Shown piece by piece: positions 2,909 to 62,260 of a stretch of DNA of 64,000 bases. A program made the translations under genes and the position numbers. The DNA comes from a virus (Duplodnaviria > Heunggongvirae > Uroviricota > Caudoviricetes). The notes under the pieces are model-generated. The model was given only the letters and a program-made list of their open reading frames with translations, made no database searches and had not been told where the DNA came from. Position 1 is the stretch's first letter. Each line of letters begins with the position of its first letter. The DNA lies in IMG/VR virus record IMGVR_UViG_3300045988_163275, positions 32,001 to 96,000 of that record; one strand, written 5' to 3'.

Positions 2909-2927
2909 CATAAGTAAGTACTTACAA
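2909..2927. promoter_or_regulatory. palindromic operator-like motif B copy (TAAGTAAGTACTTAC)
   Basis: palindrome core TAAGTACTTA, 38 nt upstream of ATG 2871. Confidence 0.5.
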
Positions 2928-2935
2928 TACAAAAA

Positions 2936-6941: not shown

Positions 6942-6953
6942 GATTAACTCCTT

Positions 6954-7684: not shown

Positions 7685-7698
7685 TTACACCACTAATT

Positions 7699-7712: not shown

Positions 7713-7739
7713 AGGCCACAAATAATGGCCTTATCTGGC

Positions 7740-8438: not shown

Positions 8439-8476
8439 ATTCACTCCATAAATATAAAAGCGCCTGACTATAGCAC

Positions 8477-8692: not shown

Positions 8693-8738
8693 ATTGCGGG
8701 CCTGCTCTGCGTCGATTTCTCTCTCTCCCTGCGCAACT

Positions 8739-9664: not shown

Positions 9665-9705
9665 GTGTTTTTTCTCTTATCATATAGTCACTATATTCTT
9701 ACATA

Positions 9706-9728
9706 GATTAGGTAAGTATTTACCTCTC
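9706..9728. promoter_or_regulatory. palindromic motif B copy
   Basis: GATTAGGTAAGTATTTACCTCTC between genes. Confidence 0.5.
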
Positions 9729-11412
9729 ATTTAACGCGTTTAAAAACGTATACGCTGACAGTAATCCCGGTGTCTTCAAACATGTTAGTAAACGACTTCC
9801 CTTTGGCATAAACGTAATTATCCAGCGTCATCCAGTTTAGAATTGGCGCGTCGCCCGGCAGCACTGCTACCAGACGCCCACCGACTTTCAGATGTCCCAG
9901 CGCGGCCAACGTGTGCTCTCTGTGACGGCCAAGAGAGTAGGGCGGGTTCATGACGATTTTGTCGAACTGATAACCTGCGTTGTCCTCAGACCACTTCATG
10001 AAGTCGCAGCAGACCGTATTTGTGTACCCCTTGCCAAGCAGGATATCAGCGAAGAGAGGTGCGACTTCTATGCAGGTAACGTCTTCCGGATTGGCGTCGA
10101 TGCAGGCCAGCAGATCTCCGCGCCCGGCTTCAGGCTCCAGCAGCTTCTCACCTGGCTTCAGCTCGATGGCTCTGGCAACGTACTCCGCTATCAAACGCGG
10201 GGTAGGGTAGAACTGGTGTGATTTTGTATCCGGTATTAAGCCGGTGGCCACAATCGTATTGAGCGTATGGCCGATCTCATACGGGAACTGCCAGTGCTTG
10301 TTCTCCTGCACGCCGCCAATAAAGCTCAGTGTACGCTCCAGCTCTTCCACCTGTGACTTCTGAAGACCGGAATCAGAGAAGTACCATACGCGTTTGTCAT
10401 TGCCAGATCGCCCGTCGCGAAGCGCAGTACGCACCGGCTCGGAGATCGTCTTCTGGATTAACCCGAACTGTTTTGGTGCCCGTGTTTTGGGCGCAGTACG
10501 ACATGGAGCCGGGATTGCAGCGGGCATACTGTAAGCCAGCACCTCATTCAGCTTCCAGGCTACGTCAGGATGTATTTCAAAGTGAACGTTGCCGTTCTTA
10601 AACATCTTCACACGCATCAGGTTTCCGTCGACATTCATCCAGTCGCCGGTCTGGCAGTCATTTGCTCGATACGCAGCTGACAGCATCTCGGCCGTGCGGT
10701 TGATGGTGATAAATTCTTTGTGTGCAAAGAAATGCAACATGACGCGCAGGTCGTCTATGTAATCCTCTTTCCGGTAGTTAACGCTGACGCTGTCCCGCCA
10801 GAAATCGGAAATGCAGTCGGCGATGATCAGACGCTCGCTGAAGCCGTTCGTCTTATTGGTCTTGTGAGCAGGACTCAACGCCTTAAACAAGCCATACACG
10901 CGCTCAGAGAGATATTTGTGCCTGTCATTCAGCAAATTAAGCATCGTTGGTATGACCGTTTCTGCTTTGAACTCAGGTACACCAACGAACTCTTTAACCT
11001 TCATTTGATAGCCAGTTCTGTCAGTCTTGATCGTTTCCTGCTTGCCCTCGATAAACTGTTCACGCCACTCGTCGCGGCGGGATGCTGGCATGATCAGCAG
11101 AACGTTGGTCATATCCGTGACCTTCTTCCAGTACTCGGCCCAGATATTTTGTTTCACCCATTCCAGGTCGACTTTGTCCAGCCAGGTTCTGTTAAAGCGT
11201 GTGCGCTCGTCGTCCGGCCGGTGGTTAAGTCGCAGTAGACGGTTAATCATGTTGTGGCGTTCGTCGCCATAAACGAAGTCGTGAACCTTATTCATGAACG
11301 CAATCTCTTTCTCGCATTCGGCCACAATTTCGTGGATAACATTCATTTCCTGCCGGTAGTCAATACCGGTGTCTGGAGTGATAGAGTCAATGATGGAAAG
11401 GGCTGTATTCAT
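9727..11412 (-). CDS. putative amino-methyltransferase (likely DNA N6-adenine) with large N-terminal domain of unknown function
   Basis: C-terminal FYPTP ... LEPEAGRGDLL ... VMNPPYS motifs (AdoMet motif I then NPPY); ATG 11410-11412 (track ORF starts TTG 11430). Confidence 0.55.
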   Translation of the reverse strand: MNTALSIIDSITPDTGIDYRQEMNVIHEIVAECEKEIAFMNKVHDFVYGDERHNMINRLLRLNHRPDDERTRFNRTWLDKVDLEWVKQNIWAEYWKKVTDMTNVLLIMPASRRDEWREQFIEGKQETIKTDRTGYQMKVKEFVGVPEFKAETVIPTMLNLLNDRHKYLSERVYGLFKALSPAHKTNKTNGFSERLIIADCISDFWRDSVSVNYRKEDYIDDLRVMLHFFAHKEFITINRTAEMLSAAYRANDCQTGDWMNVDGNLMRVKMFKNGNVHFEIHPDVAWKLNEVLAYSMPAAIPAPCRTAPKTRAPKQFGLIQKTISEPVRTALRDGRSGNDKRVWYFSDSGLQKSQVEELERTLSFIGGVQENKHWQFPYEIGHTLNTIVATGLIPDTKSHQFYPTPRLIAEYVARAIELKPGEKLLEPEAGRGDLLACIDANPEDVTCIEVAPLFADILLGKGYTNTVCCDFMKWSEDNAGYQFDKIVMNPPYSLGRHREHTLAALGHLKVGGRLVAVLPGDAPILNWMTLDNYVYAKGKSFTNMFEDTGITVSVYVFKRVK

Positions 11413-11423
11413 GATTGCACCAT

Positions 11424-11456
11424 TAAACAAATTGTTTTCTTATTGGTGTTATTTTC
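11424..11456 (-). promoter_or_regulatory. leader motif A copy
   Basis: TAAACAAATTGTTTTCTTATTGGTGTTATTTTCTC upstream of 11412. Confidence 0.5.
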
Positions 11457-11513
11457 TCAAAGCTAAAAAGGCGTAAAAGCAGCATTCACAGGCGTTGCAG
11501 CTGATTTAAGACG

Positions 11514-11536
11514 TAAAAAGGGGGCTTTCGTCCCCT
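11514..11536 (-). terminator. rho-independent terminator
   Basis: minus strand GGGGACGAAAGCCCCC followed by TTTTT, 3' of stop of 11553..12125. Confidence 0.6.
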
Positions 11537-11552
11537 GTACGCAGGTGAGAGA

Positions 11553-12125
11553 TTAGTGGTGTACGTGCTGCGTTTTGTACGGCTGTTTGTTCAGGTTGTG
11601 GCGGTGCATAAGCTCGCGCATCATGTCTTCAAGACGGCTCTTGGTGTCGTCAAGCTGGTCGGCCATTGCCCCCAGCAGCTGGCGAAGGGCCATCGGATCG
11701 TCGCTGTTCAGCTCAGGCATTTTGAACCCAGCCTGGGAAGACATCAGTTTGAAAGCGGCCAGCAACATCGCCAGAGAAGACTTCAGCCCGGCGATTTCAT
11801 GATCTTTGCTGGCGTTGGTTTCATCTGCCTTGACTGAATCCAGTGAGCACTTCGGCTTGCTTACCATTTCCAGAGTTGCCTGAAGTTTGTCGGCGCGTTC
11901 TTTCTCTTCCAGATACGCTTCGCCGAAATGACGCGCCAGCATCACAATTTCAATCGGATCATCAATCATGCTTGAGAACTTGAGAACGCTGAAAAGGCGG
12001 TCAATAGGGGAGGCGTCGTCTTCGTGACCAACCACAAGACCCATGATCTCAACCAGTTCGGCCGCACCAACTTTTTTAATCACGCTTTCAACTTTGGCAT
12101 TAGTTTTTTTGCATTTTTCACACAT
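11553..12125 (-). CDS. hypothetical protein (190 aa)
   Basis: ATG 12123-12125 with AAGGAAG SD. Confidence 0.5.
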   Translation of the reverse strand: MCEKCKKTNAKVESVIKKVGAAELVEIMGLVVGHEDDASPIDRLFSVLKFSSMIDDPIEIVMLARHFGEAYLEEKERADKLQATLEMVSKPKCSLDSVKADETNASKDHEIAGLKSSLAMLLAAFKLMSSQAGFKMPELNSDDPMALRQLLGAMADQLDDTKSRLEDMMRELMHRHNLNKQPYKTQHVHH

Positions 12126-12144
12126 GTGTTCTTCCTTATGCTTT

Positions 12145-12178
12145 TAAACAAGTTGTTTTCTTAATTGTTTAATTGTCT
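12145..12178 (-). promoter_or_regulatory. leader motif A copy
   Basis: TTTTAAACAAGTTGTTTTCTTAATTGTTTAATTG upstream of 12125. Confidence 0.45.
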
Positions 12179-14151: not shown

Positions 14152-14175
14152 TAGTAGGTAAATACTTACTTATCT
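14152..14175. promoter_or_regulatory. palindromic motif B copy
   Basis: TAGTAGGTAAATACTTACTTATC 32 nt upstream of ATG 14120. Confidence 0.5.
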
Positions 14176-14177
14176 TT

Positions 14178-14774
14178 TTATGACAAAAACCCAATGTCAT
14201 GCTTGTGAGGCATATCAGCTGCGGAATAGGCGGCGATCTTCGCCAGACGGTCACACATTTCGTTCTCGCGATGACCTGCATGGCCTTTAACCCACTTCCA
14301 GCGGACATTATGACGACTGGCGGCCGCGTCGAGACGTTTCCAGAGATCCACGTTTTTGACTGGCTTCTTCTCAGACGTGATCCATCCGTTACGCTTCCAG
14401 CCTTTCATCCAGAGCGTCATGCCGTTTTTAAGATACTGGCTGTCGGAATGCAGGATCACGTTGCAGGGGTACTTCAGACGCTCCAGCGCAATCAGGGCGC
14501 CCATCATCTCCATCCGATTGTTGGTCGTGCTGTGGAAGCCCTCAGAAAGCTCGCGCTCTTCGCCTCGATACTGGAGAACGATGCCGTAACCGCCCGGCCC
14601 GCCCGGATTTTTGAGGCAGGAGCCATCACTGAATACTTTTACGGTTTTGAGCTGGGGATTGAACTCGACTACGGGTGTGTTGAAATTGGTACGGGAATGC
14701 TGGTGGGTTTGGCATCTGGCTTTAGACTTCGTGCGGCAGCCAGTGCGTTGCCGGACTGGGTTCTTGGTCGTCAT
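14178..14774 (-). CDS. rnhA: ribonuclease HI with ~40-aa basic N-terminal extension
   Basis: [18 protein letters not shown] ... [11 protein letters not shown] ... HSDSQY ... [13 protein letters not shown] ... [15 protein letters not shown] match RNase HI catalytic motifs; ATG 14772-14774 with GGAG SD. Confidence 0.85.
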
Positions 14775-15368
14775 TTTGGCTCCAGAATCGTGCGCCGCGA
14801 CGATTTTTGTTTTCTCGCGCGTGTGCGCACGCGTGCGTGTAAATAATAAAAAATTTTATAAAAGAAAAACTTACTTCCCAGAACAGGTTTTAATAAAACC
14901 TGAACTGAACGAACGAAGTGAGTGAAGTTCACCTCGAACGAAGTGAGAGGTTGTCTTTTCAGGTAATACTCTCCCAGGGAGGTGAGTACAAAATTTCCTC
15001 ACCAACCTGGTCGTTTCATAACCTGAAAAGTTATGACCTAAGTCTACTGCCAGCTTAGGCTTGGGAAGTTATGGATGACAGCACCCCAGAACCGAGATCT
15101 TCCCACACTTTATGAAGGGGAGTACTGGAATCAACCTCTCGAAACACTCCAGACTCGACAATCATAAAGTGACCCTTCTCTCTGCTCACTTTGGTTCCCC
15201 CTTCCCCAACCCCTAAACGGTGCTGGTTCTACGCTGGTAGTGAGCTTTTTTAAACCTGACGCCAGTGACGCAATCCCCCACCCATCAGGTCGAGCTGCCG
15301 AAAGTATCCGGAAGCGGATAGATTGTATCACTGGTTAGTGGCGCTTTGAATGGTAAGTACTTACCTAT
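14775..15368. other. ~600-bp ORF-poor structured non-coding region
   Basis: alternating GCGCGTGTGCGCACGCGTGCGTG tract, AT-rich block, direct repeat CGAACGAAGTGAG x2, several inverted repeats; only low-complexity ORF 15131..15331. Confidence 0.4.
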
Positions 15369-15370
15369 TA
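15349..15370. promoter_or_regulatory. palindromic motif B copy
   Basis: TGGTAAGTACTTACCTATTA; faces the non-coding region. Confidence 0.5.
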
Positions 15371-15598
15371 TATTGATTGATTAATTTCTCGCCCATGCAG
15401 CTGGACATTCAGAGCAAACACCTCATTGATCAGCTCACCCAACAACTGCTCCACCAGTTCTATGTGCTCGCCTGAATGAAGACACTTGAGCGACCATTCG
15501 TAGAGACTGAAAGCCTTATCGCGATCTTTCATCATGTCGCGTATCTTGGCCAGAAAATCGCTCTCAACGAGCGCTACGACGTTCGTCGGGTATATCAT
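15368..15598 (-). CDS. hypothetical protein (76 aa)
   Basis: ATG 15596-15598 with AAGGAAA SD. Confidence 0.5.
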   Translation of the reverse strand: MIYPTNVVALVESDFLAKIRDMMKDRDKAFSLYEWSLKCLHSGEHIELVEQLLGELINEVFALNVQLHGREINQSI

Positions 15599-16405: not shown

Positions 16406-16426
16406 GATAGGTAAATACTTACCTAT
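16406..16426. promoter_or_regulatory. palindromic motif B copy
   Basis: GATAGGTAAATACTTACCTAT 12 nt upstream of dam ATG. Confidence 0.55.
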
Positions 16427-29625: not shown

Positions 29626-30681
29626 ATGAGCGTAAACGACAATAAAAACATTGCGATAAGCGAAGCATTTTCCGAAACAGACAAAAAGACCGGCGAAGTT
29701 GTTACGTTAGTTCCTAACACCAACAACACAGTTCAGCCTGTTGCTCTGATGCGTCTTGGTCTCTTCGTTCCGACGCTGAAATCGACATCCAGGGGTAGAA
29801 AGGGGCAAATGGTCTCTATGGACGCCTCCGCTGAACTCAAACAGCTGTCTCTGGCCAAAGCCGAAGGGTACGAGGATATAAGGATTGCTGGTCTTCGTCT
29901 TGATATGGATAACGATTTCAAAACATGGGTGGGCATCATCCACGCGTTCGCCAAGCACAAGGTTGTTGGTGACACCGTCACGTTGCCGTTCGTCGAGTTC
30001 GTCAGACTTTGTGGCATACCAACAGCCAGATCGTCCGCGAAGTTACGTAAGCGCCTGGACAGCTCTCTAAGTCGTATCGCCACAAACACCATCTCATTCC
30101 GCAGCAAAGGCTCTGAAGAGTATTACGTTACGCACCTTGTGCAGACGGCAAAGTACAGTACCAAGAATGACACGGTCGAACTGAAGGCCGATCCTAAGAT
30201 TTTCGAACTTTACCAGTTCGACAAAAAGGTGCTTTTGCAACTTCGGGCCATCAACGAACTCTCCAGAAAGGAATCCGCGCAGGCGCTCTACACCTTCATT
30301 GAAAGTTTGCCACCAGACCCGGCGCCAATCTCATTGGCTCGCTTACGCGCCAGACTTAACTTAACCAGCCGCACCATTACCCAGAATGCGACAGTCAGGA
30401 AGGCGATGGAGCAACTGCGAGAGATCGGCTATCTCGATTACACTGAAGTGAAACGCGGCAGCTCGGTCTACTTCGTCATCCACTATAGACGGCCGAAGTT
30501 ACGTTCGGCACTGCCGCCATCTATGGCCACGCCTGAAGATCCAGAAGATATCTTGCCAGGTGATGATCCGGAGGACATTATCGATGTTGCTCCTGAAGAA
30601 AAAGACGGGGAAATGGTCATGTTGAGCAAGGAAGAACTGGCGATTCTCGAAGAGCTGCGCAAGGCAAAGGCTCGCAAATAG
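29626..30681 (+). CDS. repA: plasmid replication initiator RepA (iteron-binding)
   Basis: flanked on both sides by iterons; [61 protein letters not shown] blocks resemble P1-type RepA as I recall it. Confidence 0.8.
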
Positions 30682-31975: not shown

Positions 31976-31996
31976 ATAGGTAAATGCTAACTTATA
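31976..31996. promoter_or_regulatory. palindromic motif B copy
   Basis: GATAGGTAAATGCTAACTTAT directly upstream of ATG 31974. Confidence 0.45.
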
Positions 31997-32289: not shown

Positions 32290-32305
32290 GTGTTTTCTCC
32301 TTGTT

Positions 32306-32325
32306 GGTAAGTACTTATCTATCTT
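32306..32325. promoter_or_regulatory. palindromic motif B copy
   Basis: GGTAAGTACTTATCTATC 17 nt upstream of ATG 32289; marks left edge of island. Confidence 0.55.
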
Positions 32326-42211: not shown

Positions 42212-42230
42212 GATAAGTAAGTGATTATAT
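42212..42230. promoter_or_regulatory. palindromic motif B copy (degenerate)
   Basis: TGATAAGTAAGTGATTATA downstream of recA stop. Confidence 0.35.
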
Positions 42231-42270
42231 ATTTTCAAGGTATAAAGACGTCCATTCGGACGCCTGAAAA

Positions 42271-44610
42271 TTAATCTTCTAATTCATCTGTCGGTGATGT
42301 CTTCTCGCGCCTGTCATCTATTGCCTGTAACGCAGCAATGATTTCAGCTAATGGCTTCTCCCGGTACATCTCGACGATCTGTGATTTGGTGTATTTCTTC
42401 TCGCCAATTTCCACACGCCCGCTGGCGCTCTTGGGCAGGTATCCTTCCTCCAGCATGTATTCAACCAGAGACTCGACGACGTCCAGCCCGCGAGTCGGGT
42501 CGAAGTAGAATTTCCATGAGCATTTGCCAAACGGAGGCGCGACTTTGTTTTTAATGCACTCGGCGCCAACGTCCTGTCCGATCTTCTCTTTGCCATCCTT
42601 CATGACGGATGCACCCAGACGGATGCGCACCGACGCGTAGAACTTCGGAGAGTCGCCACCCGGAGACGTAGTCGGATCGCCAAACATCACACCAATTTTG
42701 GTACGCACCTGGTTCAAGAAGATGATGCACGCGTTGTACTTACGCGCCCAAAGCGCCAGAGTAGGGAAGTTCGCACTTGTCGCGCGCGCCAGCGCCGTGT
42801 TGTCGTTCATGTTCAGCTGATCTTTGTCCTTCGCAGTGCCTTCTGCCATCTTGTCGAACTTCTCAGCCTTCGAGTTCGGAACCATCGACGCCAGAGAGTC
42901 GGCTACGATGCAGATAGGGGCTGTTTCCGGAATAAGCTCTTCGTCGCGCACCAGCTTGAGGATTGTGCCGATCAGCTCTACGGAGTCTTCGAAGGTATCC
43001 GGCTGTTTGTAGACCCACTGACCGTCGTCTTCGTCGGCGTTCAGTCCGTTCGCTACCGCCAGACCAACGTCGAAACTGTTTTCGTGGTCAAGGAATACGG
43101 CCAGACCATCCTGTTTTTGTGCTGACACCATCGCAGCTGTCGCGAGGAATGTGTTGTGGCTGATAATCCCGTTAGACCAGAAAGAGTGTGTTTCCGGCAT
43201 CGCTACGTCGAACGTTGGTGCTTCACCTTCCTCAATAGCCACGACTTCGTCGTAGAACAAGTTAGAGTCAATTACCGCTGCCAGTTGTGCAAACAGATGC
43301 TCGTTAAAACGATTCTTTCTGCTAATGAAGGAGACATAGATTTCTCGCAGTTTGTCTATTCCGACACGATCGCCGCGGCCAATAACGTGATCTACCAGAA
43401 CGTAGTCTTTACGAGAGGTCTTGGTGAGTGACTCGTAGAGTGATTTCACTAAGCCGCTGATGTGCGGAACGTAGCCTAAATAAGTGCGGTCAAAACTAAT
43501 GTCCCGTTTGGTTGCCACTGCTAAACGAGCCGGAGACTCGAACCCAATCGTTGACAGGAAAAGGTCGTAGTTAGAGCCACTGAATGACAGCCGGTAATAT
43601 ATGTTTTTATAACCTGCGACGTGTTTTTCAGAGATAGTTGACGTAATCCCCAGATTCAGGAGCATGAGGCGAATTTGCTGTAGCAGCAGCCCACTCGCGC
43701 TCACAACCTCAATGCAGCGACCATCATTGATGTGGCATTCCAGCTCAAAGTAGCCGCGAAGGAATGCAATTTGAGCCTCGCTATTGGCGCGACGCACACT
43801 CAACGGAACCTGCTTGCCAGCAGCTTTCTCATACTCCAGACCATATTCTTTAAAAAGCAGCGAACGCACCTCTTTGCTAAACAGCACATGGTCTTCCGAG
43901 CCGTTATGTTTTCTCGTAACTGGCATCTTGTCTGATACCAGCGAAATGAGGCGGTAGTACTCATCCTTGATGAATGGATCTGTGTTAGAAAAATGCACAG
44001 AATTTTCAGAGGCCACGTATCCGTCAGCAATTAAATAGCCCATCAGTTTTGCGATATTGGCATCCAAGTGCTGATCGCCGAATTGATGTGTGCCAACCAT
44101 TGAAGGAATCGTGTCGCCTACACTGATTTTTTCAGCATACCGCCAGACGATATTGCCTAAGTCGTCAACCACACGAATTGGGTGACGGAACGTAGCCTCG
44201 ATGTAACCCCCTGATGCCAGCTTAATGCGCTTGAATTTGCGACGGTTGTTCCATGTCAGGTGTGAGGTCTTCTCTATCACGCCATTTTCATTGATGAGTC
44301 CAACGTTATGCTCTACATCGCGAGTAGTGCATGTTGCTTTGTGCCCCTCAATCTCAAACAGTTCTTTCACTGTTACCATTCCACGCTCCGTCAGCAGCAT
44401 GGTGTCTGCGGTAACACATTTCCCCGCGCTTGGTGGCCCGAAGACTTCAACGATACGCCCACACGGAAAACCACCGTCGTAACGTCCGGAAATGGCTTTG
44501 TTCAGTGGAGGGAAACCGGAGTCAATCCAGTGGGAGACCTTCTGAATCTCGTCATTGCTGCCGATTTTCTTTTTCAGCGCCAGTGCCAGTGCGGATTTGC
44601 CTTTTGCCAT
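42271..44610 (-). CDS. recA: RecA recombinase interrupted by a 422-aa intein
   Basis: exteins total ~357 aa with GPPSAGK P-loop and IFLNQVRTKIGVMFGDPTTSPGGDSPKFYASVRIRLG core; ATG with AAGGAG SD. Confidence 0.9.
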   Translation of the reverse strand: MAKGKSALALALKKKIGSNDEIQKVSHWIDSGFPPLNKAISGRYDGGFPCGRIVEVFGPPSAGKCVTADTMLLTERGMVTVKELFEIEGHKATCTTRDVEHNVGLINENGVIEKTSHLTWNNRRKFKRIKLASGGYIEATFRHPIRVVDDLGNIVWRYAEKISVGDTIPSMVGTHQFGDQHLDANIAKLMGYLIADGYVASENSVHFSNTDPFIKDEYYRLISLVSDKMPVTRKHNGSEDHVLFSKEVRSLLFKEYGLEYEKAAGKQVPLSVRRANSEAQIAFLRGYFELECHINDGRCIEVVSASGLLLQQIRLMLLNLGITSTISEKHVAGYKNIYYRLSFSGSNYDLFLSTIGFESPARLAVATKRDISFDRTYLGYVPHISGLVKSLYESLTKTSRKDYVLVDHVIGRGDRVGIDKLREIYVSFISRKNRFNEHLFAQLAAVIDSNLFYDEVVAIEEGEAPTFDVAMPETHSFWSNGIISHNTFLATAAMVSAQKQDGLAVFLDHENSFDVGLAVANGLNADEDDGQWVYKQPDTFEDSVELIGTILKLVRDEELIPETAPICIVADSLASMVPNSKAEKFDKMAEGTAKDKDQLNMNDNTALARATSANFPTLALWARKYNACIIFLNQVRTKIGVMFGDPTTSPGGDSPKFYASVRIRLGASVMKDGKEKIGQDVGAECIKNKVAPPFGKCSWKFYFDPTRGLDVVESLVEYMLEEGYLPKSASGRVEIGEKKYTKSQIVEMYREKPLAEIIAALQAIDDRREKTSPTDELED
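43153..44418 (-). mobile_element. intein with LAGLIDADG homing-endonuclease domain inserted in the RecA P-loop
   Basis: starts CVTADTMLL after GPPSAGK, TFRHP block, LMGYLIADGYV and FLRGYFELECH dodecapeptides, ends IISHN followed by T; boundary codons checked by hand. Confidence 0.8.
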
Positions 44611-45883: not shown

Positions 45884-46900
45884 TTACAGAGCGTCCAGTT
45901 CAGCCAGCAGGTTATCGAGACCTTCATCAGCTGGTACAGATGCAGCGGCAGCAGATGCTGAAGCACTTGCGGCTTCGGTGGCTTCCGGAGCTTTCGCTTC
46001 TTCCGGTTTGAACTCAGCTTCAGCTGCACGCAGGATCTCTTCATCAACCAGGCTGGTGGACTCTGGCGCCGGAGTATGTGCTGTAGCGACAGCAGCTGCG
46101 CCTTCCGTATGTCCAGTGATAGAGCCAAAGCCTGGCAGTCCAGCTGCGGCTGATTTTGCAGCGGAAGAAATGGCTGGTGAGGACATAGTTGCTGCCGGAG
46201 CCGCAATACCAATCAGACGACCCATAGTGCGAGCCGTGGACAGCAAACGAGTTTCGTCAGACTGGTTCGCATATGCGATCAGATCGTGTTGGGTAGTCCA
46301 GAGCTTCTCAGGAATGTCGCCTTTGTAGACTTTACGTTTCGGGGATACGTCGTACTTGGTGTCACGACCGGAACCGGTGCGTTTAATCAGGAACGCATAG
46401 CCTTCTTCTTTGCTCAGTGGGTTGCCAATATCGTCCGCAATATCTTCGGACATCACTTTGCAGATATCGTCGAAGACCGTAGACGGCAGCTCAATTAGCT
46501 GGCATTTCTCTGCGTCCGCAAAGTCTTCACGCGCAGACAGAACACCGTTGACCAGATAACGCGGCGTAGCACGCATACTATTAATGCGCTCTTCCATCGC
46601 TTTGTTGCCCTTAAAGCGAGCGCGACCTTCCATAACCATCTCACACAGCTGGCAAGCGTGGCCGTGGGTGTGTTGTTCGCAGATATAGGCGGTGGTTACA
46701 TCTTTGCCTTCCTCATTCTGATGCTTAACGTAGTGCATACCGAAAGTCTGGAAGAACACGCCATTCGGATCGTCCTTGTTCGGAAAAATGCGCAGATAGT
46801 TATTGCCATCTTTCAGACGGGTCAAATCAATGTTATTGCCACGTTTGGAAGCAATATCGCCACGGGTCTTGTTAAGCAGATCAAGTAATGACTTAGACAT
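45884..46900 (-). CDS. putative ssDNA-binding protein (gp32-like) with acidic C-terminal tail
   Basis: GNNYLRIFPNKDDPNGVFFQTFGMHYVKH followed by H/C cluster (CEQHTHGHACQLC); A/E-rich tail; AAGGAG SD. Confidence 0.55.
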   Translation of the reverse strand: MSKSLLDLLNKTRGDIASKRGNNIDLTRLKDGNNYLRIFPNKDDPNGVFFQTFGMHYVKHQNEEGKDVTTAYICEQHTHGHACQLCEMVMEGRARFKGNKAMEERINSMRATPRYLVNGVLSAREDFADAEKCQLIELPSTVFDDICKVMSEDIADDIGNPLSKEEGYAFLIKRTGSGRDTKYDVSPKRKVYKGDIPEKLWTTQHDLIAYANQSDETRLLSTARTMGRLIGIAAPAATMSSPAISSAAKSAAAGLPGFGSITGHTEGAAAVATAHTPAPESTSLVDEEILRAAEAEFKPEEAKAPEATEAASASASAAAASVPADEGLDNLLAELDAL

Positions 46901-46986: not shown

Positions 46987-47010
46987 ATAGATCAGTACTT
47001 ACTTACTATC
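46987..47010. promoter_or_regulatory. palindromic motif B copy
   Basis: GATAGATCAGTACTTACTTACTATC upstream of SSB gene. Confidence 0.5.
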
Positions 47011-47560: not shown

Positions 47561-48121
47561 ATGGGGATAATTCTGATAACCTGTAGTCAGTACTGCGTAG
47601 TCGCAGATGCTCTGTATAGCCACGGTTGCGATGATGCGCTCATTTGCTACTACGGAAACTCAGTGTATGTAGAATTTGACCGAGAAGCTAAATCTTTAGA
47701 TGAAGCAATCGAATCGGCAATCCTTGATATTGAAACAGCAGGCATTGGCGCAGTGGTGGAATCGGTAGATTCAGCACTGGTAGGCTTGAGCGATATTGCT
47801 CAACTCTCTGGCTTAACGCGCCAGGCTATTACTCTGCTTAAAGACGGATTACGTGGCAAAGGTGATTTTCCTTGCCCTGTTCAGCGTATCAGCGGTCAGT
47901 CTCCACTCTGGGACTGGGCGGAAGTCGCTAAATGGTTGAATGACTGCGGTCGTCTTGACAGCAAAGACGAAAAAGCACGGGAAGAACTGGTGCGTAACGC
48001 GCGCACATTGAGTACGTGGAATCTTGCCCTGCGTATAAGATCGTTGGGCGACATTCATGAGGTGGAGAGAGTTACTCGCTCACTCAGTCACTCGCAAGAC
48101 TGCGAAAAAATTTGCGCATAA
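47561..48121 (+). CDS. putative transcriptional regulator with AlpA-like HTH C-terminal domain
   Basis: LSDIAQLSGLTRQAITLLKDGLRGKGDFPCPVQRISGQSPLWDWAEVAKWL; terminator follows; start uncertain. Confidence 0.45.
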   Translation: MGIILITCSQYCVVADALYSHGCDDALICYYGNSVYVEFDREAKSLDEAIESAILDIETAGIGAVVESVDSALVGLSDIAQLSGLTRQAITLLKDGLRGKGDFPCPVQRISGQSPLWDWAEVAKWLNDCGRLDSKDEKAREELVRNARTLSTWNLALRIRSLGDIHEVERVTRSLSHSQDCEKICA

Positions 48122-53072: not shown

Positions 53073-53131
53073 GTTTTTTCCTTACTGTTTGTCGTTTGTG
53101 GGGTATATCTTATAGAAATATATTAGGCTGT

Positions 53132-53150
53132 ATAGTAAGTAGTTACTTAT
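53132..53150. promoter_or_regulatory. palindromic motif B copy
   Basis: ATAGTAAGTAGTTACTTAT upstream of the AAA+ gene. Confidence 0.45.
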
Positions 53151-53167: not shown

Positions 53168-55399
53168 TTACCAAAGAATGATACGAGATAACTCAGTGAC
53201 GACTGACGGCCCTAACTCTTCAACACTGTTAACCAGTGCGTAATTTTTGTAGTAACGCCGTGGTTCGTCGGTCAGAATGCCGATAGCCATCAGTTCGATG
53301 TCGCTCAAGGTCTCAATTTCTTTGGTGACGGTTCGTAAATGCTGATGGAATCCACTACCTGTAGCACATGGCTCCCCATCACTCATAACCAGCATGATCT
53401 TTTTGTCCTCCATTCGCCCTGCAAACAGGGTAGCCAGTTGCGCGACACTCTCACCATCGACGTTATTGAGCAGGGGGAACGTCTCACATACGCATCCCAT
53501 GCGAGCACGGATCTCTGGAGAGTTTGCTTTCTCATTCCAGTTTTTGATAATGGGCAGCATGAGCGCCTCGAAGCGTGTAAACCCGCGCTTCGACCTGGTT
53601 TCATAATCTGGGCTACCGAACGTGGTAAAGCCGGTGATGATGTTGGGGACATTGATACGATCTAAAGCATCCGCAATGGTATAGGCACTGGCTAGGGCCA
53701 GTTGAATCTTCACGCCATCCATTGAGCCGGACAAGTCGATGACCTGCTGGACACACGCATTCACCGCTCTATGGTCTTCCTTCTTGCGGAACACTCGGTC
53801 GTCGTTCATTGCCAGACGATACAGGCTCGCGCCATGTATCCGCCCACGCCTCTGACCAGGTATAAACTGAACTCGGTTGCGGCTGGCGATGGCCCGCTCC
53901 AGGTCTTTGGCCAGCGTCGAAGAAACGCCTGCAGACAGATGTTTTTCGATTTTCAGTTCAAAGAGTTTTCTGCCTTCTGGCACCATACGGTAGCGGTCGA
54001 CTGGTGAGTGCATTGGTATTGCACCGAACGTCTTTCTGGTGCGCTTCACATGCTCTTCGGCTCCATCAATCAACCCGATAAAGTCGTATGATCGATCGTA
54101 TGGCCGATAATCAGAAGGTGAGACGCTCATAAGCTCTTTGCTGATGGTGGCCGACAGTGCGTCTTCGGTCATTTCACCGATTCCGTCTTCCATCTCGTCG
54201 AGCGCCTTTAGCGCCTCCTCCAGAGTCATTTCATCCGGCGCAGGAACAAAGCCAGACTCACTGTCTTTGGGCACTTCCGCACCATCTTTATTTTTTTTGC
54301 CTTCGACGTCTTCTTCTTCAGTTTCCCCACGATCAGTATCGGAGTCCTCACCGCCATCACCATCGGTGTCAGAGTCACTTGATTTCATGCCGATAGCATC
54401 GGATTCTGGGGTGTCTCCTGACTCTTCGTGGCCTGCTTCTGTATATTTACTTTCTGTATCACTAATATCTTTAACGTGTGTAGGTAAGTCCTTATCTAAC
54501 GAATCAGGCAAATCGGAATCCCCAGAATCTTCCTCTTCTGATGCATCATCTTCTCGTTCTTCCTTGTCATCGCCTTCGCCTTTGGCAGGCTTAGATGCAG
54601 AGTCACCATGAGATGGCTCGTCACCTGATTCTGGCGTTTCCTCGGACTCGTCTTTGCTCTCCGACGGATTTCTGGCAGATGATTTAAGTTCTGGTAATTT
54701 GCCCTCTGGCTTGTCTTTCATATCCTGCATGATTTGGGCTATAGCAGCAGCGACCTTCACGCAATCCTCAGTGTTCGACATATTGCGAACGGCCACGTCT
54801 ATACCATGCTCCTTTAGTAAGGCTACCGGCCTCTCGATAAGGCGCCAGTGTTCTTCCATAAAATCGATGAAGGGGCTTTGTCCATCCCAGGCGCGGACGA
54901 CCGGGCAAAGGAAGAATTTCAAAAACAATTCACGCTGGTCTCCGTGACAGGCTAAAACCGCTTCTGGTACTTTATTCCTGAAGTATTTGTCGATAACCAG
55001 ACTCTGTGTTGCAAGTAAATTACGCCGGGTTCCGTTAAAGACCTGCCCCATTCTGCGTTCAATAAAAACGTCTTCCAGCGCATTCCAAAGCCCCGTAGAC
55101 GGAGCCTTTCCTCTTTCGCGCATCTGCATTGCGACTTTCGGTTCAGTAAAGAGAATATGGGCCACCTCATGGTCGAGAAAACCACGCACTGCGTTCATGA
55201 GGGTTGGCGACGCGTCGTCCGGTATAGATGGGATGTTTACCAGCACTGGTTCGCCGCGCCGGTTATAGCGGACATATGCTTCATTGCCTCGTTCTGCAAC
55301 AGGTATCTGTTTACCTGAAAGCATCGCTACAACTCGTTTTACACAGTCGCGAAAATCCTGCACCTCTTTCAGTACAGCTTTGGTGGTTTTTTTGGACAT
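53168..55399 (-). CDS. von Willebrand factor A (vWA) domain protein with acidic low-complexity linker
   Basis: C-terminal MIDAS DLSGSMDG and LVMSDGEP; central D/E/S-rich region; ATG 55397-55399 with AAGGGAA SD (track ORF extends to 55468). Confidence 0.7.
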   Translation of the reverse strand: MSKKTTKAVLKEVQDFRDCVKRVVAMLSGKQIPVAERGNEAYVRYNRRGEPVLVNIPSIPDDASPTLMNAVRGFLDHEVAHILFTEPKVAMQMRERGKAPSTGLWNALEDVFIERRMGQVFNGTRRNLLATQSLVIDKYFRNKVPEAVLACHGDQRELFLKFFLCPVVRAWDGQSPFIDFMEEHWRLIERPVALLKEHGIDVAVRNMSNTEDCVKVAAAIAQIMQDMKDKPEGKLPELKSSARNPSESKDESEETPESGDEPSHGDSASKPAKGEGDDKEEREDDASEEEDSGDSDLPDSLDKDLPTHVKDISDTESKYTEAGHEESGDTPESDAIGMKSSDSDTDGDGGEDSDTDRGETEEEDVEGKKNKDGAEVPKDSESGFVPAPDEMTLEEALKALDEMEDGIGEMTEDALSATISKELMSVSPSDYRPYDRSYDFIGLIDGAEEHVKRTRKTFGAIPMHSPVDRYRMVPEGRKLFELKIEKHLSAGVSSTLAKDLERAIASRNRVQFIPGQRRGRIHGASLYRLAMNDDRVFRKKEDHRAVNACVQQVIDLSGSMDGVKIQLALASAYTIADALDRINVPNIITGFTTFGSPDYETRSKRGFTRFEALMLPIIKNWNEKANSPEIRARMGCVCETFPLLNNVDGESVAQLATLFAGRMEDKKIMLVMSDGEPCATGSGFHQHLRTVTKEIETLSDIELMAIGILTDEPRRYYKNYALVNSVEELGPSVVTELSRIILW

Positions 55400-55426
55400 T
55401 AGAATTCCCTTGTTGTTAAAACAATT

Positions 55427-55460
55427 TGTTTTCTGATGTGCGTAATTTATCACTGTACGA
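55427..55460 (-). promoter_or_regulatory. leader motif A copy
   Basis: TAAAACAATTTGTTTTCTGATGTGCGTAATTTATC upstream of 55399. Confidence 0.5.
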
Positions 55461-55511
55461 ACAGGCATCTAATCTGTTCGTACAGGCGCTAGAGAGGATG
55501 GGAGGGGGGTG

Positions 55512-55724
55512 TTAAATTGTGCGGACGGCTACTGAACCGCAGCCGGTATTGATGAGAGTGAAGCACTTGCCCTTTAGCTCAAAGATGTATGCGGTTGCGT
55601 CTTTCATGCCAAGTAACAAAGACTTTGTTGGCAGTTCAGTGAGTATGGCTGCTGCCCCGTCAGCGTCAATTGAAACCGTATGTCCGACCTTAAGGGCGAT
55701 CAAATTAGAAGTTATTTTTTTCAT
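55512..55724 (-). CDS. hypothetical protein (70 aa)
   Basis: ATG 55722-55724; weak SD. Confidence 0.35.
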   Translation of the reverse strand: MKKITSNLIALKVGHTVSIDADGAAAILTELPTKSLLLGMKDATAYIFELKGKCFTLINTGCGSVAVRTI

Positions 55725-55932
55725 TTCATATCATCCAACTGAACACGTAAATGCCTTGCAATACTACTACCTATTGTATCAATACGGAATACTTATATAT
55801 CAAATACAACTTAGTTTTAAGTTCTTAAATGAGTTGTTTTTTAGATAGTTGTCTATTAATGAAGCCTTTTGCGGTCAATAACTCTACGAAAAAAAATAGA
55901 TAAGTCTTTACAACACTAACCTTTGATGTAAT

Positions 55933-55952
55933 ATCAGTAAGCACTTACCATA
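55933..55952. promoter_or_regulatory. palindromic motif B copy upstream of XRE regulator gene
   Basis: ATCAGTAAGCACTTACCATA ~30 nt upstream of ATG 55981. Confidence 0.5.
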
Positions 55953-55980
55953 TAAAATCAAAACACGCAGGTTGATAATT

Positions 55981-56370
55981 ATGGCTACCAACGAAATAAC
56001 AGAAGCTAAAGTAGGTCGCTATGCTGCTTACATTGACGCTTTAATCGCGATTTCTCCGAAAAGCCAGGCGACCATCGCGAAAGAAGCAGGCTATAAAAAT
56101 CCTAACAATCTTTCACTTATCAAGAGCGGCAAAATCCCGCTTCCGATCGACAAGGTCAGAGCGTTGGCTAAAGCATTGGATGCCGATTCGGTCCGATTGA
56201 TGCTAATGGTGCTGGAAGAGCGTCATCCAGAGCTGTTAGCGTTTTTTCGCGACGAAGGCACAGCCCCTCTGACTAAAGATGAAAAACTAGTTCTGGAAGC
56301 CTTCCGTCGACGTTTCGGTGACCAACGTGGTGCGTCGGAGCGGGTTGTTGAGGCAATCAAGTCGCTATGA
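55981..56370 (+). CDS. XRE-family helix-turn-helix transcriptional regulator (candidate repressor)
   Basis: SQATIAKEAGYKNPNNLSLIKSGKIPLPIDKVRALAKAL; divergent from lytic-type operon, convergent with recombinase. Confidence 0.55.
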   Translation: MATNEITEAKVGRYAAYIDALIAISPKSQATIAKEAGYKNPNNLSLIKSGKIPLPIDKVRALAKALDADSVRLMLMVLEERHPELLAFFRDEGTAPLTKDEKLVLEAFRRRFGDQRGASERVVEAIKSL

Positions 56371-57468
56371 GAAATTTACACGGATTAGCTCAGTAGCGAG
56401 TCGATCTCCCTTGAACTTATGATCTATCTCCTCTAAATCCTGTTTCTCTACGATTGATGCGATGTACGCCGAAAAACTGTTTAAGGCGTCTCGCATCTCG
56501 TCTATATAATCGTGTCGATCGTATACTCGATCTATCCCCTCAAGACTGTGGTTCATAATTTTGCGGGATACCTCCTGACTTATGCCTAACGCGGGGAAGT
56601 AACTACGCGCAGTACGACGCAAATCTCGGGGGGTAAATGGCTCAAGCTCCATCAACTCTGGACGTTCTAAAATCCTTCTCAACGCCTGTGATATGGCCAC
56701 CTTAGACATTGGCACATCCTCACCCTGTTTCTTGTTTGAAGGAACAAGCCACTGGCTGCCTTTTCCGTATTTGATCAGCTCCTCAACACATTTGCGCATT
56801 AGCGGGCTTAATGGTAACGAGTGCTGGCGAGCCGATTTATTCCTCGTTCCTTGATTCCATAAATTATATTCGAGGTTGAATTCTGATCTTTTAGCTCGGA
56901 GCACTTCATCTGGTCGTCTGGCCGCTACAAGGCATAATCTGGCCGCCCACTTTGTACCCTCACATACGTTGAAGTAGTCCCATACATTCCAAAAGACCCA
57001 GACCTCTGCGTCGGTCAGTTTGCGCTCGCGCGGCGTGGGCTTCGCGCCACCGGCTACTCTGTTAAGCGACATATCGTTCAATGGGGATGTATCAATTAAG
57101 CCCTGAAATGCACACCAACTGAGAAACTGCTTCATCAGCGAGAACACACGTCTGCCCTGGACGATCTTACCTTCCAGTATCAGTGGGTTCACCAGCTGGT
57201 TGACCAAGACCCTACTTATATCACTTACCTTTACATCAGAGATATGCGGCATTACATGTATCAAAACACAATGAACGGCTATTTCAGGTCGACGCCTCGT
57301 TATCAGTAAAGATAAGCGAGTGAATAACATGAAGGCAGAAGAAAACGACATGTCTCCGTCGAATTTGGCGGTCGACACTGCCGACAAACCGGAAGCGCGT
57401 TCGAGGTACTCGATGGCTTCCCGAGAGGTATTTTCTGCTGCGCGTGCTTTATCAAAGGTGTTTTTCAT
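56365..57468 (-). CDS. tyrosine site-specific recombinase / integrase
   Basis: FTPRDLRRTARSYF and VYDRHDY C-terminal catalytic-region motifs; 367 aa. Confidence 0.8.
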   Translation of the reverse strand: MKNTFDKARAAENTSREAIEYLERASGLSAVSTAKFDGDMSFSSAFMLFTRLSLLITRRRPEIAVHCVLIHVMPHISDVKVSDISRVLVNQLVNPLILEGKIVQGRRVFSLMKQFLSWCAFQGLIDTSPLNDMSLNRVAGGAKPTPRERKLTDAEVWVFWNVWDYFNVCEGTKWAARLCLVAARRPDEVLRAKRSEFNLEYNLWNQGTRNKSARQHSLPLSPLMRKCVEELIKYGKGSQWLVPSNKKQGEDVPMSKVAISQALRRILERPELMELEPFTPRDLRRTARSYFPALGISQEVSRKIMNHSLEGIDRVYDRHDYIDEMRDALNSFSAYIASIVEKQDLEEIDHKFKGDRLATELIRVNFS

Positions 57469-57493
57469 CGTCCACTCACTGAGTGAAGCCTTT

Positions 57494-57513
57494 TACTGTA
57501 TATATAAACAGTA
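57494..57513. promoter_or_regulatory. LexA (SOS) box
   Basis: TACTGTATATATAAACAGTA = CTGT-N8-ACAG with AT-rich spacer, ~26 bp upstream of recombinase ATG. Confidence 0.65.
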
Positions 57514-57640
57514 TATTAGGCATAAGTTTTTGTATGATCAACCATAAAATAGCCTGTTTTATACAATGATTCCATACTTAATAGGTATGGAATCATTTAA
57601 GGACGGAAATTTAAATTCTGAGATTTTATTAGCGTGATTG

Positions 57641-58051
57641 TCACGGATTAGTGAGAGCTTGAAATGCGGCGGCGTATGCAGCGATATCGGCCATAATTTT
57701 TGGATCTTTCGCAAACTGATGTGCGTTGTTAGGGAAGATTGCCAATAGGCTATACACATCTTGGAAATGTGCATGTTGACTGTAAACGAGTGCGCGGTCG
57801 CTTGTGCAATTGAATCTGTTGCGGCTGCTGGTTCGTTCTTGCTTCGTGAGCAAGAGATGAACGTGATAAACGCGGGAGGACACAATAGCACCCGGAGCCG
57901 TATACGGGCCATCTTTCCCGAATACGGTTGGGTACATGCCTTGTTTAAGCGACGTGAAATCGTTGAGTAACGTGATCTTTAAATCAGGCTTTATATCGAA
58001 GGTCGGCTGTAAAAATTGGGCGTAACTATCACTGTTCCATGTGACCTTCAT
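57641..58051 (-). CDS. YafO-like toxin candidate
   Basis: VFGKDGPY ... RVYHVHLL ... ALVYSQHA ... LLAIFPNNAHQFAKDPKIMADIAAYAAAFQ follows the YafO pattern as recalled; SD inside 3' end of upstream gene. Confidence 0.5.
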   Translation of the reverse strand: MKVTWNSDSYAQFLQPTFDIKPDLKITLLNDFTSLKQGMYPTVFGKDGPYTAPGAIVSSRVYHVHLLLTKQERTSSRNRFNCTSDRALVYSQHAHFQDVYSLLAIFPNNAHQFAKDPKIMADIAAYAAAFQALTNP

Positions 58052-58764: not shown

Positions 58765-59010
58765 TTACAGAGTGCTCGCAAAAGCAGCAAATTCTGTATA
58801 GCCGCCGATAGGATCACCATTAACGAACACCTGCGGTATGGTTTCCACCGGTTTGCCAACCAGGTCGCTCAACTTCTCTTTGTCGATGCCGGCAGACACA
58901 ATATCGATGTATTCGTAATCGCCAAAGCCGTGGCCGTGCAGCTGCTTCGCCAGCTCGACCGCACGTTTGCAGTATGAGCAATTATCGCGTCCGTAGATAA
59001 CGACCTTCAT
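58765..59010 (-). CDS. glutaredoxin-like protein
   Basis: VVIYGRDNCSYCKRAVELAK with CxxC site and C-terminal VFVNGDPIGGYTEF; ATG overlaps PhoH-like stop. Confidence 0.8.
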   Translation of the reverse strand: MKVVIYGRDNCSYCKRAVELAKQLHGHGFGDYEYIDIVSAGIDKEKLSDLVGKPVETIPQVFVNGDPIGGYTEFAAFASTL

Positions 59011-59630
59011 CACTTCGCCTCGTGCAGCTGCTGCTTGAGAAGATAGCCTTCCAGCGGCCAGATTTTGGCAATCGCGTTCTGACGTGTAATTTTACGCCCG
59101 ATCTCCGGGTCAAAGTTCTCCGGGCTGGCGCACGCAGACTCGCCGGTTACGGTAAAGCCGTTCTTGGCCACCTCTGGCTTTAAGCAATATTCAAGGAATG
59201 AGCCACCCAAACGCTTCTGTAGCACGTCATAGACGGGCCGGAAGAACGGAGCGAACTTCTCGCTCATGTCGCCCGGAAGGAAGCCCAGATCTTCTTCTGC
59301 TTGCAATACCGGACGCGTCACGATGATCTTCCCGACTTCCTTATCCAGCAGACGCTGCGCTGCGACGGCAGCAGCCAGGTAGGTTTTGCCGCAGCCGGCT
59401 TCACCAGTGGCGAACGTCAGAGATTTGGTGTCGAGGGAGATAAGATAGTGGGCCTGGGCCTCGTTTCGCGCTTCGATGGGAGAGTTGTCGCGTTTAGGTT
59501 TTGGTGGCAGAGCAGGGGCGACAGCCAGCTCGTCAACGATGATTGTGTCAATTTCGTAGCCGTGGATGCGTGGCTTTGACTTCAGTGCCTGACGAGCTGC
59601 GCGACGCGCCTGTTTACGTTTGTTTCCCAT
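59010..59630 (-). CDS. PhoH-like P-loop ATPase lacking the usual C-terminal half
   Basis: FATGEAGCGKTYLAAAVAAQ ... IIVTRPVLQAEEDLGFLPGDMSEKFAPFFRPVYD; ATG 59628-59630 with AAAGGA SD. Confidence 0.65.
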   Translation of the reverse strand: MGNKRKQARRAARQALKSKPRIHGYEIDTIIVDELAVAPALPPKPKRDNSPIEARNEAQAHYLISLDTKSLTFATGEAGCGKTYLAAAVAAQRLLDKEVGKIIVTRPVLQAEEDLGFLPGDMSEKFAPFFRPVYDVLQKRLGGSFLEYCLKPEVAKNGFTVTGESACASPENFDPEIGRKITRQNAIAKIWPLEGYLLKQQLHEAK

Positions 59631-59676
59631 ATTGAGTCCTTTCAAGTGAGTAACTGAAAGAACTATACCGACAAAT

Positions 59677-59697
59677 AATAGGTAAGTCATTACCTAT
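59677..59697. promoter_or_regulatory. palindromic motif B copy
   Basis: AATAGGTAAGTCATTACCTAT 47 nt upstream of PhoH-like ATG. Confidence 0.5.
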
Positions 59698-62233: not shown

Positions 62234-62260
62234 AGATAAGTAAGTAAATACTTATCTATC
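62234..62260. promoter_or_regulatory. palindromic motif B copy
   Basis: TAGATAAGTAAGTAAATACTTATCTATC overlapping stop of 62252..62557. Confidence 0.5.

Follow-up and report, generated by a model that had tools for sequence, protein, structure and literature searches.

A plus-strand XRE-type regulator gene with a candidate palindromic operator at its own promoter in an SSU5-supergroup phage-plasmid

The 64,000-nucleotide stretch analyzed here (the window; positions 32,001 to 96,000 of IMG/VR record IMGVR_UViG_3300045988_163275, a Caudoviricetes virus) carries, at 55981..56370 on the plus strand, the gene for a 129-residue helix-turn-helix (HTH) regulator (MATNEIT...AIKSL), and a copy of a palindrome dispersed through the window, which we call motif B, lies at the start of its predicted transcript. 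From the sequence evidence we give slightly better than even odds (about 0.55) to the reading that this gene encodes a lysogeny-phase XRE-type repressor of an SSU5-supergroup phage-plasmid and acts through motif B; its product is our best candidate for the protein that keeps the plasmid-prophage silent. The most economical interpretation is that the protein represses its own gene through motif B, from which binding to the other copies in the window would follow. By sequence identity the window is part of an SSU5-supergroup phage-plasmid, because positions 55400-57500 share ∼72% identity with Cyrano (pLF82), CMS-2020a, and PhiR41_1, which are phage-plasmids of Escherichia, ∼71% with Klebsiella pJN2-26-type elements, and 98% with a large set of E. 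coli plasmids of 106-120 kb.

A consensus scan predicts a sigma70 promoter for the HTH gene at 55907..55934 on the plus strand (TTTACA at 55907-55912, a 16-nt spacer, and TAATAT at 55929-55934). The motif-B copy ATCAGTAAGCACTTACCATA, at 55933..55952, begins within the −10 hexamer and extends over the expected transcription start; its core, GTAAGCACTTAC at 55937-55948, has one mismatch against the motif-B core GTAAGTACTTAC, and we propose it as the operator. The first-pass annotation had placed the gene directly behind a motif-B copy, and this is borne out: 55933 is the first base of the 20-bp palindrome, which scores 17.3 bits under a weight matrix trained without the site and is conserved in relatives. 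It is the weakest intergenic motif-B site (17.3 bits vs 18.1-30), which fits the expectation for an autoregulatory operator. A weaker motif-B-like half-site (55896..55915, 9.6 bits) overlaps the −35 hexamer, is not conserved in relatives, and is probably non-functional. The likely translation start is ATG 55981 within the open reading frame (ORF) 55972..56370, as length and start then equal those of orthologues, and a Shine-Dalgarno-like AGGT (55969..55972, plus strand), read directly from the sequence, lies 8 nt before it.

We aligned the intergenic region of the window with those of Cyrano, PhiR41_1, and pJN2-26, whose regulator proteins are 60-69% identical. Mean column identity was 69%, and the block CTTTACAAC.CTAACCTTTGATGTAATATC(G/A)GTAAG(C/T)ACTTACCA, which comprises both promoter hexamers and the palindrome core, was nearly invariant in these relatives. 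Both hexamers and GGTAAG(C/T)ACTTACC were invariant, the surrounding intergenic region had diverged, and motif B was the sole conserved non-promoter element upstream of the HTH gene. Conservation ends right after the palindrome, which counts against a leftward promoter that uses it. The position of the palindrome, conserved in relatives, is thus that of a putative operator overlapping the promoter of its own gene.

A de novo palindrome count in the window yielded two dispersed families, motif A (discussed below) and motif B, whose core extends to the 20-bp consensus ATAGGTAAGTACTTACCTAT. With ≤2 mismatches allowed, 18 copies of the core are present where 1.34 would be expected, and a weight-matrix scan returned 36 positions (∼25 separate sites) scoring ≥8 bits, compared with 1.65 in shuffles. 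Even when ORFs are mapped so generously that they fill 89% of the window, 11 or more of the 18 strong sites lie wholly outside them, and the single clearly coding strong site is 54480, inside cobT. The other strong sites are 2910..2929 (22.2 bits, directly after a terminator-like hairpin), 9708..9727 (22.3 bits), 14154..14173 (27.7 bits, followed by TATAAT), 15349..15368 (27.6 bits, perfect core), 16407..16426 (30.0 bits, upstream of a DNA methyltransferase gene), 21250..21269 (29.5 bits), 21400..21419 (18.1 bits), 22525..22544 (27.7 bits), 27957..27976 (26.4 bits), 31976..31995 (20.2 bits), 32303..32322 (25.7 bits), 42213..42232 (21.5 bits), 46987..47006 (23.2 bits, upstream of gene 45884-46900, which has the position of the Cyrano SSB gene), 53131..53150 (19.2 bits, upstream of a cobS-like AAA ATPase gene), 59678..59697 (24.5 bits), and 62236..62255 (26.0 bits). 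One recognition sequence is therefore dispersed ahead of many lytic transcription units (18 strong sites in 64 kb), and SSU5 and Cyrano hold 25 matches each at ≤2 mismatches.

In the mechanism that we propose, a dimer of the regulator would bind the motif-B core GGTAAGTACTTACC, and binding at its own sigma70 promoter would result in negative autoregulation. The same protein would occupy the ∼18 stronger copies in the window and ∼25 copies (≤2 mismatches) per whole related genome. These copies stand 10-90 nt ahead of genes for replication, nucleotide metabolism, and virion structure, and their occupancy would help to silence these genes during plasmid replication. The half-sites of motif B have centers ∼10 bp apart, a spacing that suits a dimeric HTH protein on one helix face; those of motif A have centers only 7 bp apart.

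A palindrome may also act as RNA; motif B would then be a hairpin that serves antisense termination or RNA processing or stability, and its presence ahead of the HTH gene would be incidental. Many copies do fold, with 6-10-bp stems, 4-6-nt loops, and −4 to −11 kcal/mol vs ∼−1 for shuffles, and a T-rich run follows copies on the antisense strand. However, permutation tests on 38 motif-B copies from the window and SSU5 revealed complementary co-variation at only 1 of 14 symmetric position pairs, a flank pair (p ∼0.009, uncorrected for 14 tests), and half-site changes at the other pairs break pairing rather than compensate, so that the sequence is conserved rather than the structure. The HTH-promoter copy folds at only −0.3 kcal/mol, yet it is the best-conserved element of its region. 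We thus rejected the hairpin as the basis of motif B and regard it as highly improbable.

Assignment of the regulator to the XRE family from sequence alone is weak. Its Pfam matches, HTH_31 (E 0.021, 15.5 bits against a cut-off of 27) and HTH_3 (E 0.032, 14.7 bits against a cut-off of 23), fall below the curated thresholds, and 51 database homologues likewise have no precomputed Pfam domain. Among PHROG profiles, phrog_8 'transcriptional regulator' matched at E 1.2e-10; a profile search against PDB returned only 2kpj (E 0.099); and hhalign placed 'KSQATIAKEAGYKNPNNLSLIKSGK' in register with the 434 helix-turn-helix (E 0.03). The question is settled by structure: in an AlphaFold2 model (pLDDT, the model's own confidence score, 77-89 over residues 11-80) helices span residues 13-24, 29-35, 42-48, 56-65, and 70-81, and Foldseek matched the model to C.AhdI with a template-modeling (TM) score of 0.78-0.82 (target-normalized) and a root-mean-square deviation of 1.9-2.3 Å, and also to the 434 repressor DNA-binding domain (1pra, TM 0.70), ClgR, C.BclI, SinR, and Stl. 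As modeled, the protein has the XRE-type five-helix HTH fold, and close copies are labeled 'XRE family transcriptional regulator' in RefSeq. The plus-strand XRE-type gene noted at first pass is thus confirmed by the ORF, by phrog_8, and by AlphaFold2/Foldseek, and its description as the only one in the window needs a qualification: no other phrog_8/XRE-like ORF was found among ∼44 window ORFs scanned, but a second putative DNA-binding regulator is encoded at 47561-48121 on the plus strand (phrog_2620 'excisionase and transcriptional regulator'), homologous to the Cyrano 'putative antitoxin HicB'. The HicA partner known in SSU5 and Cyrano was not found in the window. The motif-B site at 46987 lies near this second gene.

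Homologues of the HTH gene stand beside the integrase gene in the same synteny in 1003 plasmid records. Carriers include pHCM2-type Salmonella, pMT1-type Yersinia, Klebsiella, Enterobacter, Moellerella (42% identity), and Acinetobacter (38% identity) plasmids, and per-genus counts almost equal those of the flanking backbone. CYRAN_45 of Cyrano (67% identical to the regulator) and the RefSeq XRE entries of SSU5/pHCM2/pSLy3/pKpn/pMT1-type plasmids are orthologous (60-100% identical), with the same synteny of cobS-like gene, cobT, 70-residue ORF, HTH gene, and integrase gene; these entries are annotation-level calls only, and we found no operator, regulon, or mechanism described for them in the literature searched.

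The recognition region GYKN(P/A)NNLSLIKSGKIPLP is invariant across the enteric lineages, as is motif B. In the pCAV-like Klebsiella plasmid pRHBSTW-00636_4, GTGATTACTTAC lies 29 nt upstream of the HTH gene. Moellerella has the same polar helix-3 residues and dispersed B-like GTATTTACTTA sites, one of them upstream of its HTH gene. The Acinetobacter protein differs in helix 3 (NVLSMIKSGE vs NNLSLIKSGK), and the dispersed palindrome there, ATCAGTCAGTACTGACTGAT, is motif B with symmetric changes in both half-sites; the symmetric variant GTCAGTACTGAC has 28 sites vs 4.2 expected, and copies and half-sites of it lie in the HTH upstream region. Across six lineages, each HTH gene therefore carries its lineage's own version of the dispersed palindrome.

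The orthologue is expressed where a lysogeny regulator should be. In an LF82 lysogen of Cyrano, CYRAN_45, annotated 'putative repressor', has an expression value of 96 against a prophage median of 9.8, with 50 for the integrase and 20 for the 70-residue gene (PMC9928086 S1 Table), and B-linked genes are at background in the same table. Expression in a lysogen with lytic genes silent is thus seen for this 67%-identical orthologue only. The ParB/KorB-like CYRAN_119 and 120 were rejected as the lysogenic binder of motif B, being at background expression in the lysogen. CYRAN_98, labeled 'LexA-like S24', was rejected as the real repressor; it is a 129-residue UmuD-like protein and is absent from the window.

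SSU5 offers what appears to be a natural mutant. No HTH homologue was found in SSU5, the only family member without the gene and also the one isolated and used as a free phage. In SSU5 (NC_018843) the cobT promoter stands directly beside tRNA-Asn (42525-42596; cobT at 42761), and plasmids that match SSU5 at 98-99% identity have an insert of 6.7 kb there (compared: L014, NZ_CP103753 42400-52500) with phoH, gp49, grxA, a 202-residue ORF, yafO, the integrase gene, the HTH gene, and the 70-residue ORF. The SSU5 junction was found in 0 of 822 related plasmids, all of which retain the block. Because near-identical plasmids keep the module and no plasmid has the junction, we consider the deletion recent; it removes other genes besides the HTH gene. 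The 25 motif-B sites of SSU5, present without the gene, were accordingly rejected as counter-evidence, as the sites have had no time to decay. SSU5 grows as a phage without the HTH gene, so the protein is not an essential activator of B-type promoters.

A different role for motif B nonetheless has to be weighed, in which another dimeric protein of the lytic phase, comparable to the P1 activator Lpa, would activate −35-less middle/late promoters through it, the copy at +1 would shut off the HTH gene, and the HTH protein would still be the lysogeny regulator, with another target. Several observations weigh against repression through motif B, and some of them favor this activator. Typical B sites look like promoters that face the downstream gene: their 5' side is A-rich, a TAnnnT hexamer (TATACT in Acinetobacter) adjoins them on the 3' side, there is no clear −35, and terminator hairpins precede several of them; such −35-less flanks appear to fit activator-dependent promoters like the P1 late promoters better than repressor operators. 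B sites precede structural as well as replication genes, and the structural block of SSU5 holds seven. Placement of the palindrome in a sigma70 spacer at fixed register was rejected for lack of support from the enteric sites, the mean score being 3.15 sense vs 3.51 antisense; the absence of sense/antisense asymmetry is a further such point, and a few enteric B sites have TTGAAA-17-TATGAT. The HTH-promoter copy lacks the outer ATAG/CTAT flanks, the co-variation of motif and recognition helix rests on a single evolutionary event, and the regulator is not the sole small DNA-binding protein that the Cyrano lysogen expresses (CYRAN_117 at 114, CYRAN_114 at 18, for example). In SSU5, which multiplies in the absence of the HTH gene, all B sites remain. 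The P1 activator Lpa binds a 9-bp inverted repeat found at each of the 11 late promoters of that phage, and well-studied phages have their late genes under positive control (PMC10695390). Like the P1 late promoters, typical B sites look like inverted repeats just upstream of a −10, with no clear −35, in many copies; unlike them, they also precede replication genes and, in one case, stand at +1 of a complete sigma70 promoter.

The activator would, however, have to be an additional protein that co-varies with the motif in Acinetobacter, and it does not explain why motif and helix 3 changed together there. It would also leave the HTH protein without a conserved candidate operator, since motif B alone is conserved upstream and motif A is absent from Moellerella. 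In Cyrano in macrophages, the onset of the rise in lytic genes is accompanied by an increase, not a fall, in the HTH signal (which may be from either strand). We therefore hold activation through motif B to be possible, as a minority view. The HTH protein had been put forward at first pass as the prime candidate for binding the dispersed palindromes. In favor of this are the conserved B copy at ∼+1, the association of motif B or its variant with the HTH gene in six lineages, expression of CYRAN_45 in lysogens, and loss of the gene only in SSU5; against it, activator-type B promoters fit equally.

A more modest role is also conceivable, in which the regulator acts locally on the module of 70-residue ORF, HTH gene, and integrase gene, for example on integrase levels (multimer-resolution/recombination), with no global silencing. 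The HTH and integrase genes are adjacent in every lineage (orientation differs in Acinetobacter), the whole module is dispensable for SSU5 phage growth, and CYRAN_44, 45, and 46 change together, rising 12- to 90-fold in macrophages (CYRAN_46 ∼90-fold; the signal may be from either strand). But if the B core is bound at the HTH promoter, the better-matching dispersed copies should bind more tightly, and the fact that ∼1000 plasmids retain the gene and only the free phage lacks it points to a role in the plasmid-prophage state. A purely local role is thus rather unlikely.

If the regulator represses through motif B, it does so in an unconventional setting. The gene order from left to right is dnaE (minus strand), a small ORF, the cobS-like AAA ATPase gene, cobT, the 70-residue ORF (minus strand), and the HTH gene (plus strand), followed by the tyrosine recombinase gene (minus strand), a YafO-type toxin module, a glutaredoxin gene, and tRNA-Asn. 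The HTH gene had been described as divergent from a lytic-type operon; it does lie opposite the 70-residue ORF, cobT, the cobS-like ATPase gene, and dnaE, but cobT has its own motif-A promoter, so the divergent region is not the sole source of transcription for this operon. The 70-residue ORF (55512..55724, minus strand; orthologue CYRAN_46) belongs to phrog_2627 (function unknown), is syntenic in all lineages, and has no Pfam match; its model (pLDDT 69) is alpha/beta with a weak Roadblock/LC7-like match and no HTH, and we rejected it, at this modest confidence, as a Cro analogue. As modeled, the divergent partner is not an HTH protein. No S24 match, the sign of a domain for RecA-stimulated self-cleavage, was found in the 129-residue regulator, the C-terminus of which is predicted by AlphaFold2 to be helical. 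With a partner that is not Cro-like, no S24 domain, and an overlapping, convergent integrase gene with a LexA box, the description of the locus as a classic immunity region was overstated, and the layout is not a classic cI/cro pair.

Comparison with known systems places the regulator in a familiar class. It resembles lambdoid CI/434 in its five-helix HTH, in a palindromic site with half-sites one helical turn apart that lies over its own promoter, and in a gene divergent from lytic-direction genes; it differs in being 129 residues long without an S24 autocleavage domain, in having a single conserved candidate operator rather than a tripartite OR, in its non-Cro-like partner, and in the genome-wide dispersal of its sites. 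The best structural matches of its DNA-binding domain (TM 0.7-0.8, target-normalized) are the controller (C) proteins C.AhdI, C.BclI, and C.Esp1396I, small XRE proteins that, as dimers, recognize palindromic boxes ahead of their own genes, a layout that the regulator resembles; unlike these, it has no adjacent restriction-modification genes, carries an extra ∼50-residue C-terminal helical region, and has a dispersed site. In phage P1, one recognition sequence is scattered before many lytic transcription units and is also present at the regulator's own gene; the P1 operators are asymmetric 17-mers, and the regulator, C1, is not known to have an XRE fold. C1 is the primary repressor controlling the early genes of P1 (PMC10695390). 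The element studied here is likewise a phage-plasmid with a dispersed recognition sequence, including a copy at the regulator's own gene, but the sequence is a 20-bp palindrome and also occurs inside the structural block, and no homology of the regulator to C1 was found in any homology search made. A temperate-phage XRE repressor with a P1-like dispersed regulon is a familiar class, and its components (XRE repressor, palindromic operator, SOS box) are ordinary.

Because the regulator has no RecA-sensitive domain, induction must be indirect. The tyrosine recombinase (integrase) gene (56365..57468, minus strand; Pfam Phage_integrase, E 6.8e-9) is convergent with the HTH gene, the 3' ends overlapping by 6 nt, and the pairing is conserved in ∼1000 plasmids. 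A near-consensus LexA box, TACTGTATATATAAACAGTA (57494..57513), lies ∼28 nt upstream of the integrase ATG and just downstream of the hexamers of a putative minus-strand promoter (TTGATC at 57541-57536, TAATAT at 57518-57513). A CTGT-N8-ACAG box occurs at the same place in Cyrano (L001:7070), PhiR41_1 (L003:7066), pJN2-26 (L004:6588), the pCAV-like Klebsiella plasmid (L010:5332), and the Enterobacter plasmid pMB2617_2 (L014:6044), and this conserved LexA box putatively controls the convergent integrase promoter. No terminator was detected at the HTH/integrase junction or across the HTH gene, with one weak match inside the integrase ORF. Given the overlap, the convergence, and the absence of a detected terminator, an SOS-induced integrase transcript should run antisense through the regulator gene and its promoter into the 70-residue ORF and cobT. 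We speculate that on induction the LexA-controlled integrase promoter would fire antisense through the regulator gene, and such read-through as the induction route is speculative. Cyrano is induced 39-fold by ciprofloxacin (PMC9928086), SSU5-like elements other than Cyrano by mitomycin C, and SSU5-type phage-plasmids in general by DNA damage (PMC9600943, PMC9928086).

Motif A, AAACAAnTTGTTT, has 13 copies in the window at ≤1 mismatch (1183-12158 and 55419-55431), 20 in SSU5, and 18 in Cyrano. It lies ∼8-20 nt downstream of the starts of strong sigma70-type promoters (cTTGACGcc-17-GATAAT), just before the ribosome-binding site, in a cassette cTTGACGcc-17-GATAAT-taacaccaacaaga-AAACAAnTTGTTT-aAGGAG-ATG ahead of early-type small genes and cobT. 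The cobT copy, AAACAATTTGTTT (55419..55431), is in the leader of one of the 13 motif-A promoters of the window, and the −35 region of this promoter is flanked by paired inverted 12-mers, CTGTACGAACAG and CTGTTCGTACAG (55453-55464 and 55474-55485). SSU5 has the pair at ∼90% conservation, Cyrano lacks it, and no further copy exists in the window or in SSU5. These 12-mers were rejected as LexA boxes, as the spacing is N4 rather than N8 and they are unique to the cobT promoter.

That the HTH protein targets motif A was also rejected: the half-site centers of this motif are too close for the spacing described above, and no copy was found in the Moellerella plasmid NZ_CP129024 (L011-L013), where the helix-3 residues and the B-like motif are kept, which counts against it. 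In that plasmid a non-palindromic TATGGGAGCTAGG follows directly after a TATAAAT-like −10 (9 sites, e.g., 23596, 45952, and 78472). With TATGGGAGCTAGG in place of motif A, the early-promoter leader element is lineage-specific, and motif B is broadly kept.

In the Cyrano lysogen most motif-A-linked genes are at or near background (ParA is ∼5-fold above), so something must repress these strong promoters, and a candidate binder is CYRAN_117 / SSU5_123, an RHH-like (ribbon-helix-helix, by eye) protein that is expressed in the lysogen and encoded outside the window. Taken together with repression through motif B, this would give a two-palindrome silencing circuit, with the XRE protein on at least ∼25 B-type promoters and its own, a second small protein on the motif-A early promoters, and SOS input through the antisense integrase transcript, without repressor cleavage or an antirepressor. 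As a whole we consider this circuit doubtful.

We found no description of lysis-lysogeny control of SSU5-type phage-plasmids in the literature searched. That the gene is an XRE regulator or putative repressor was already known from annotation; what is new is the assignment of a candidate operator, with lists of its sites across whole genomes, the co-variation between lineages, the recognition of SSU5 as a natural deletion mutant, and the LexA-boxed convergent integrase. SSU5-type elements are among the commonest phage-plasmids of Enterobacterales and include pHCM2-like and pMT1-like elements and carriers of resistance genes (PMC9600943, PMC9928086). With a regulator, a proposed operator sequence, a site list, a natural deletion mutant, and a LexA box in hand, the switch is directly testable, and it could explain why SSU5 is usable as a lytic phage while its relatives persist as plasmids. 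If the two-palindrome circuit were true, it would silence pHCM2-type plasmids of S. Typhi, pMT1-type plasmids of Y. pestis, and many resistance-carrying plasmids of Enterobacterales.

Some further features of the window were recorded. The repeated 11-mers CACTACAGTGG and TACAGTGGATA, with 6 copies each in the window, near the Rep gene (29626-30681), look like iterons of a plasmid replicon with a Rep3-type initiator. The ORF 59010-59690 (minus strand) matches PhoH-like profiles at residues 17-171 and unrelated PHROGs (phrog_322 and others) at residues 174-226, which suggests a gene fusion, a frameshift, or a mis-joined ORF, as relatives have separate phoH and gp49. An Rfam scan of 55000-58000 gave nothing above threshold.

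Finally, an ultra-conserved segment of ∼255-270 nt lies at ∼15040-15310 on the minus strand and is near-identical in the window, SSU5, and Cyrano, the upstream flank being far less conserved. It has no Rfam match above threshold (scan of 14700-15500) and no annotated feature in 233 E. coli records, and of 234 E. coli matches (92-98.5% identity) 232 are on plasmids. The 44-codon 'CYRAN_81', expressed at 12-fold over background in the lysogen, overlaps the segment, and ahead of the segment are an extended −10 (TGnTAnnAT) and, centered at ∼−43, the perfect motif-B site at 15349..15368. We consider this segment a candidate non-coding RNA.

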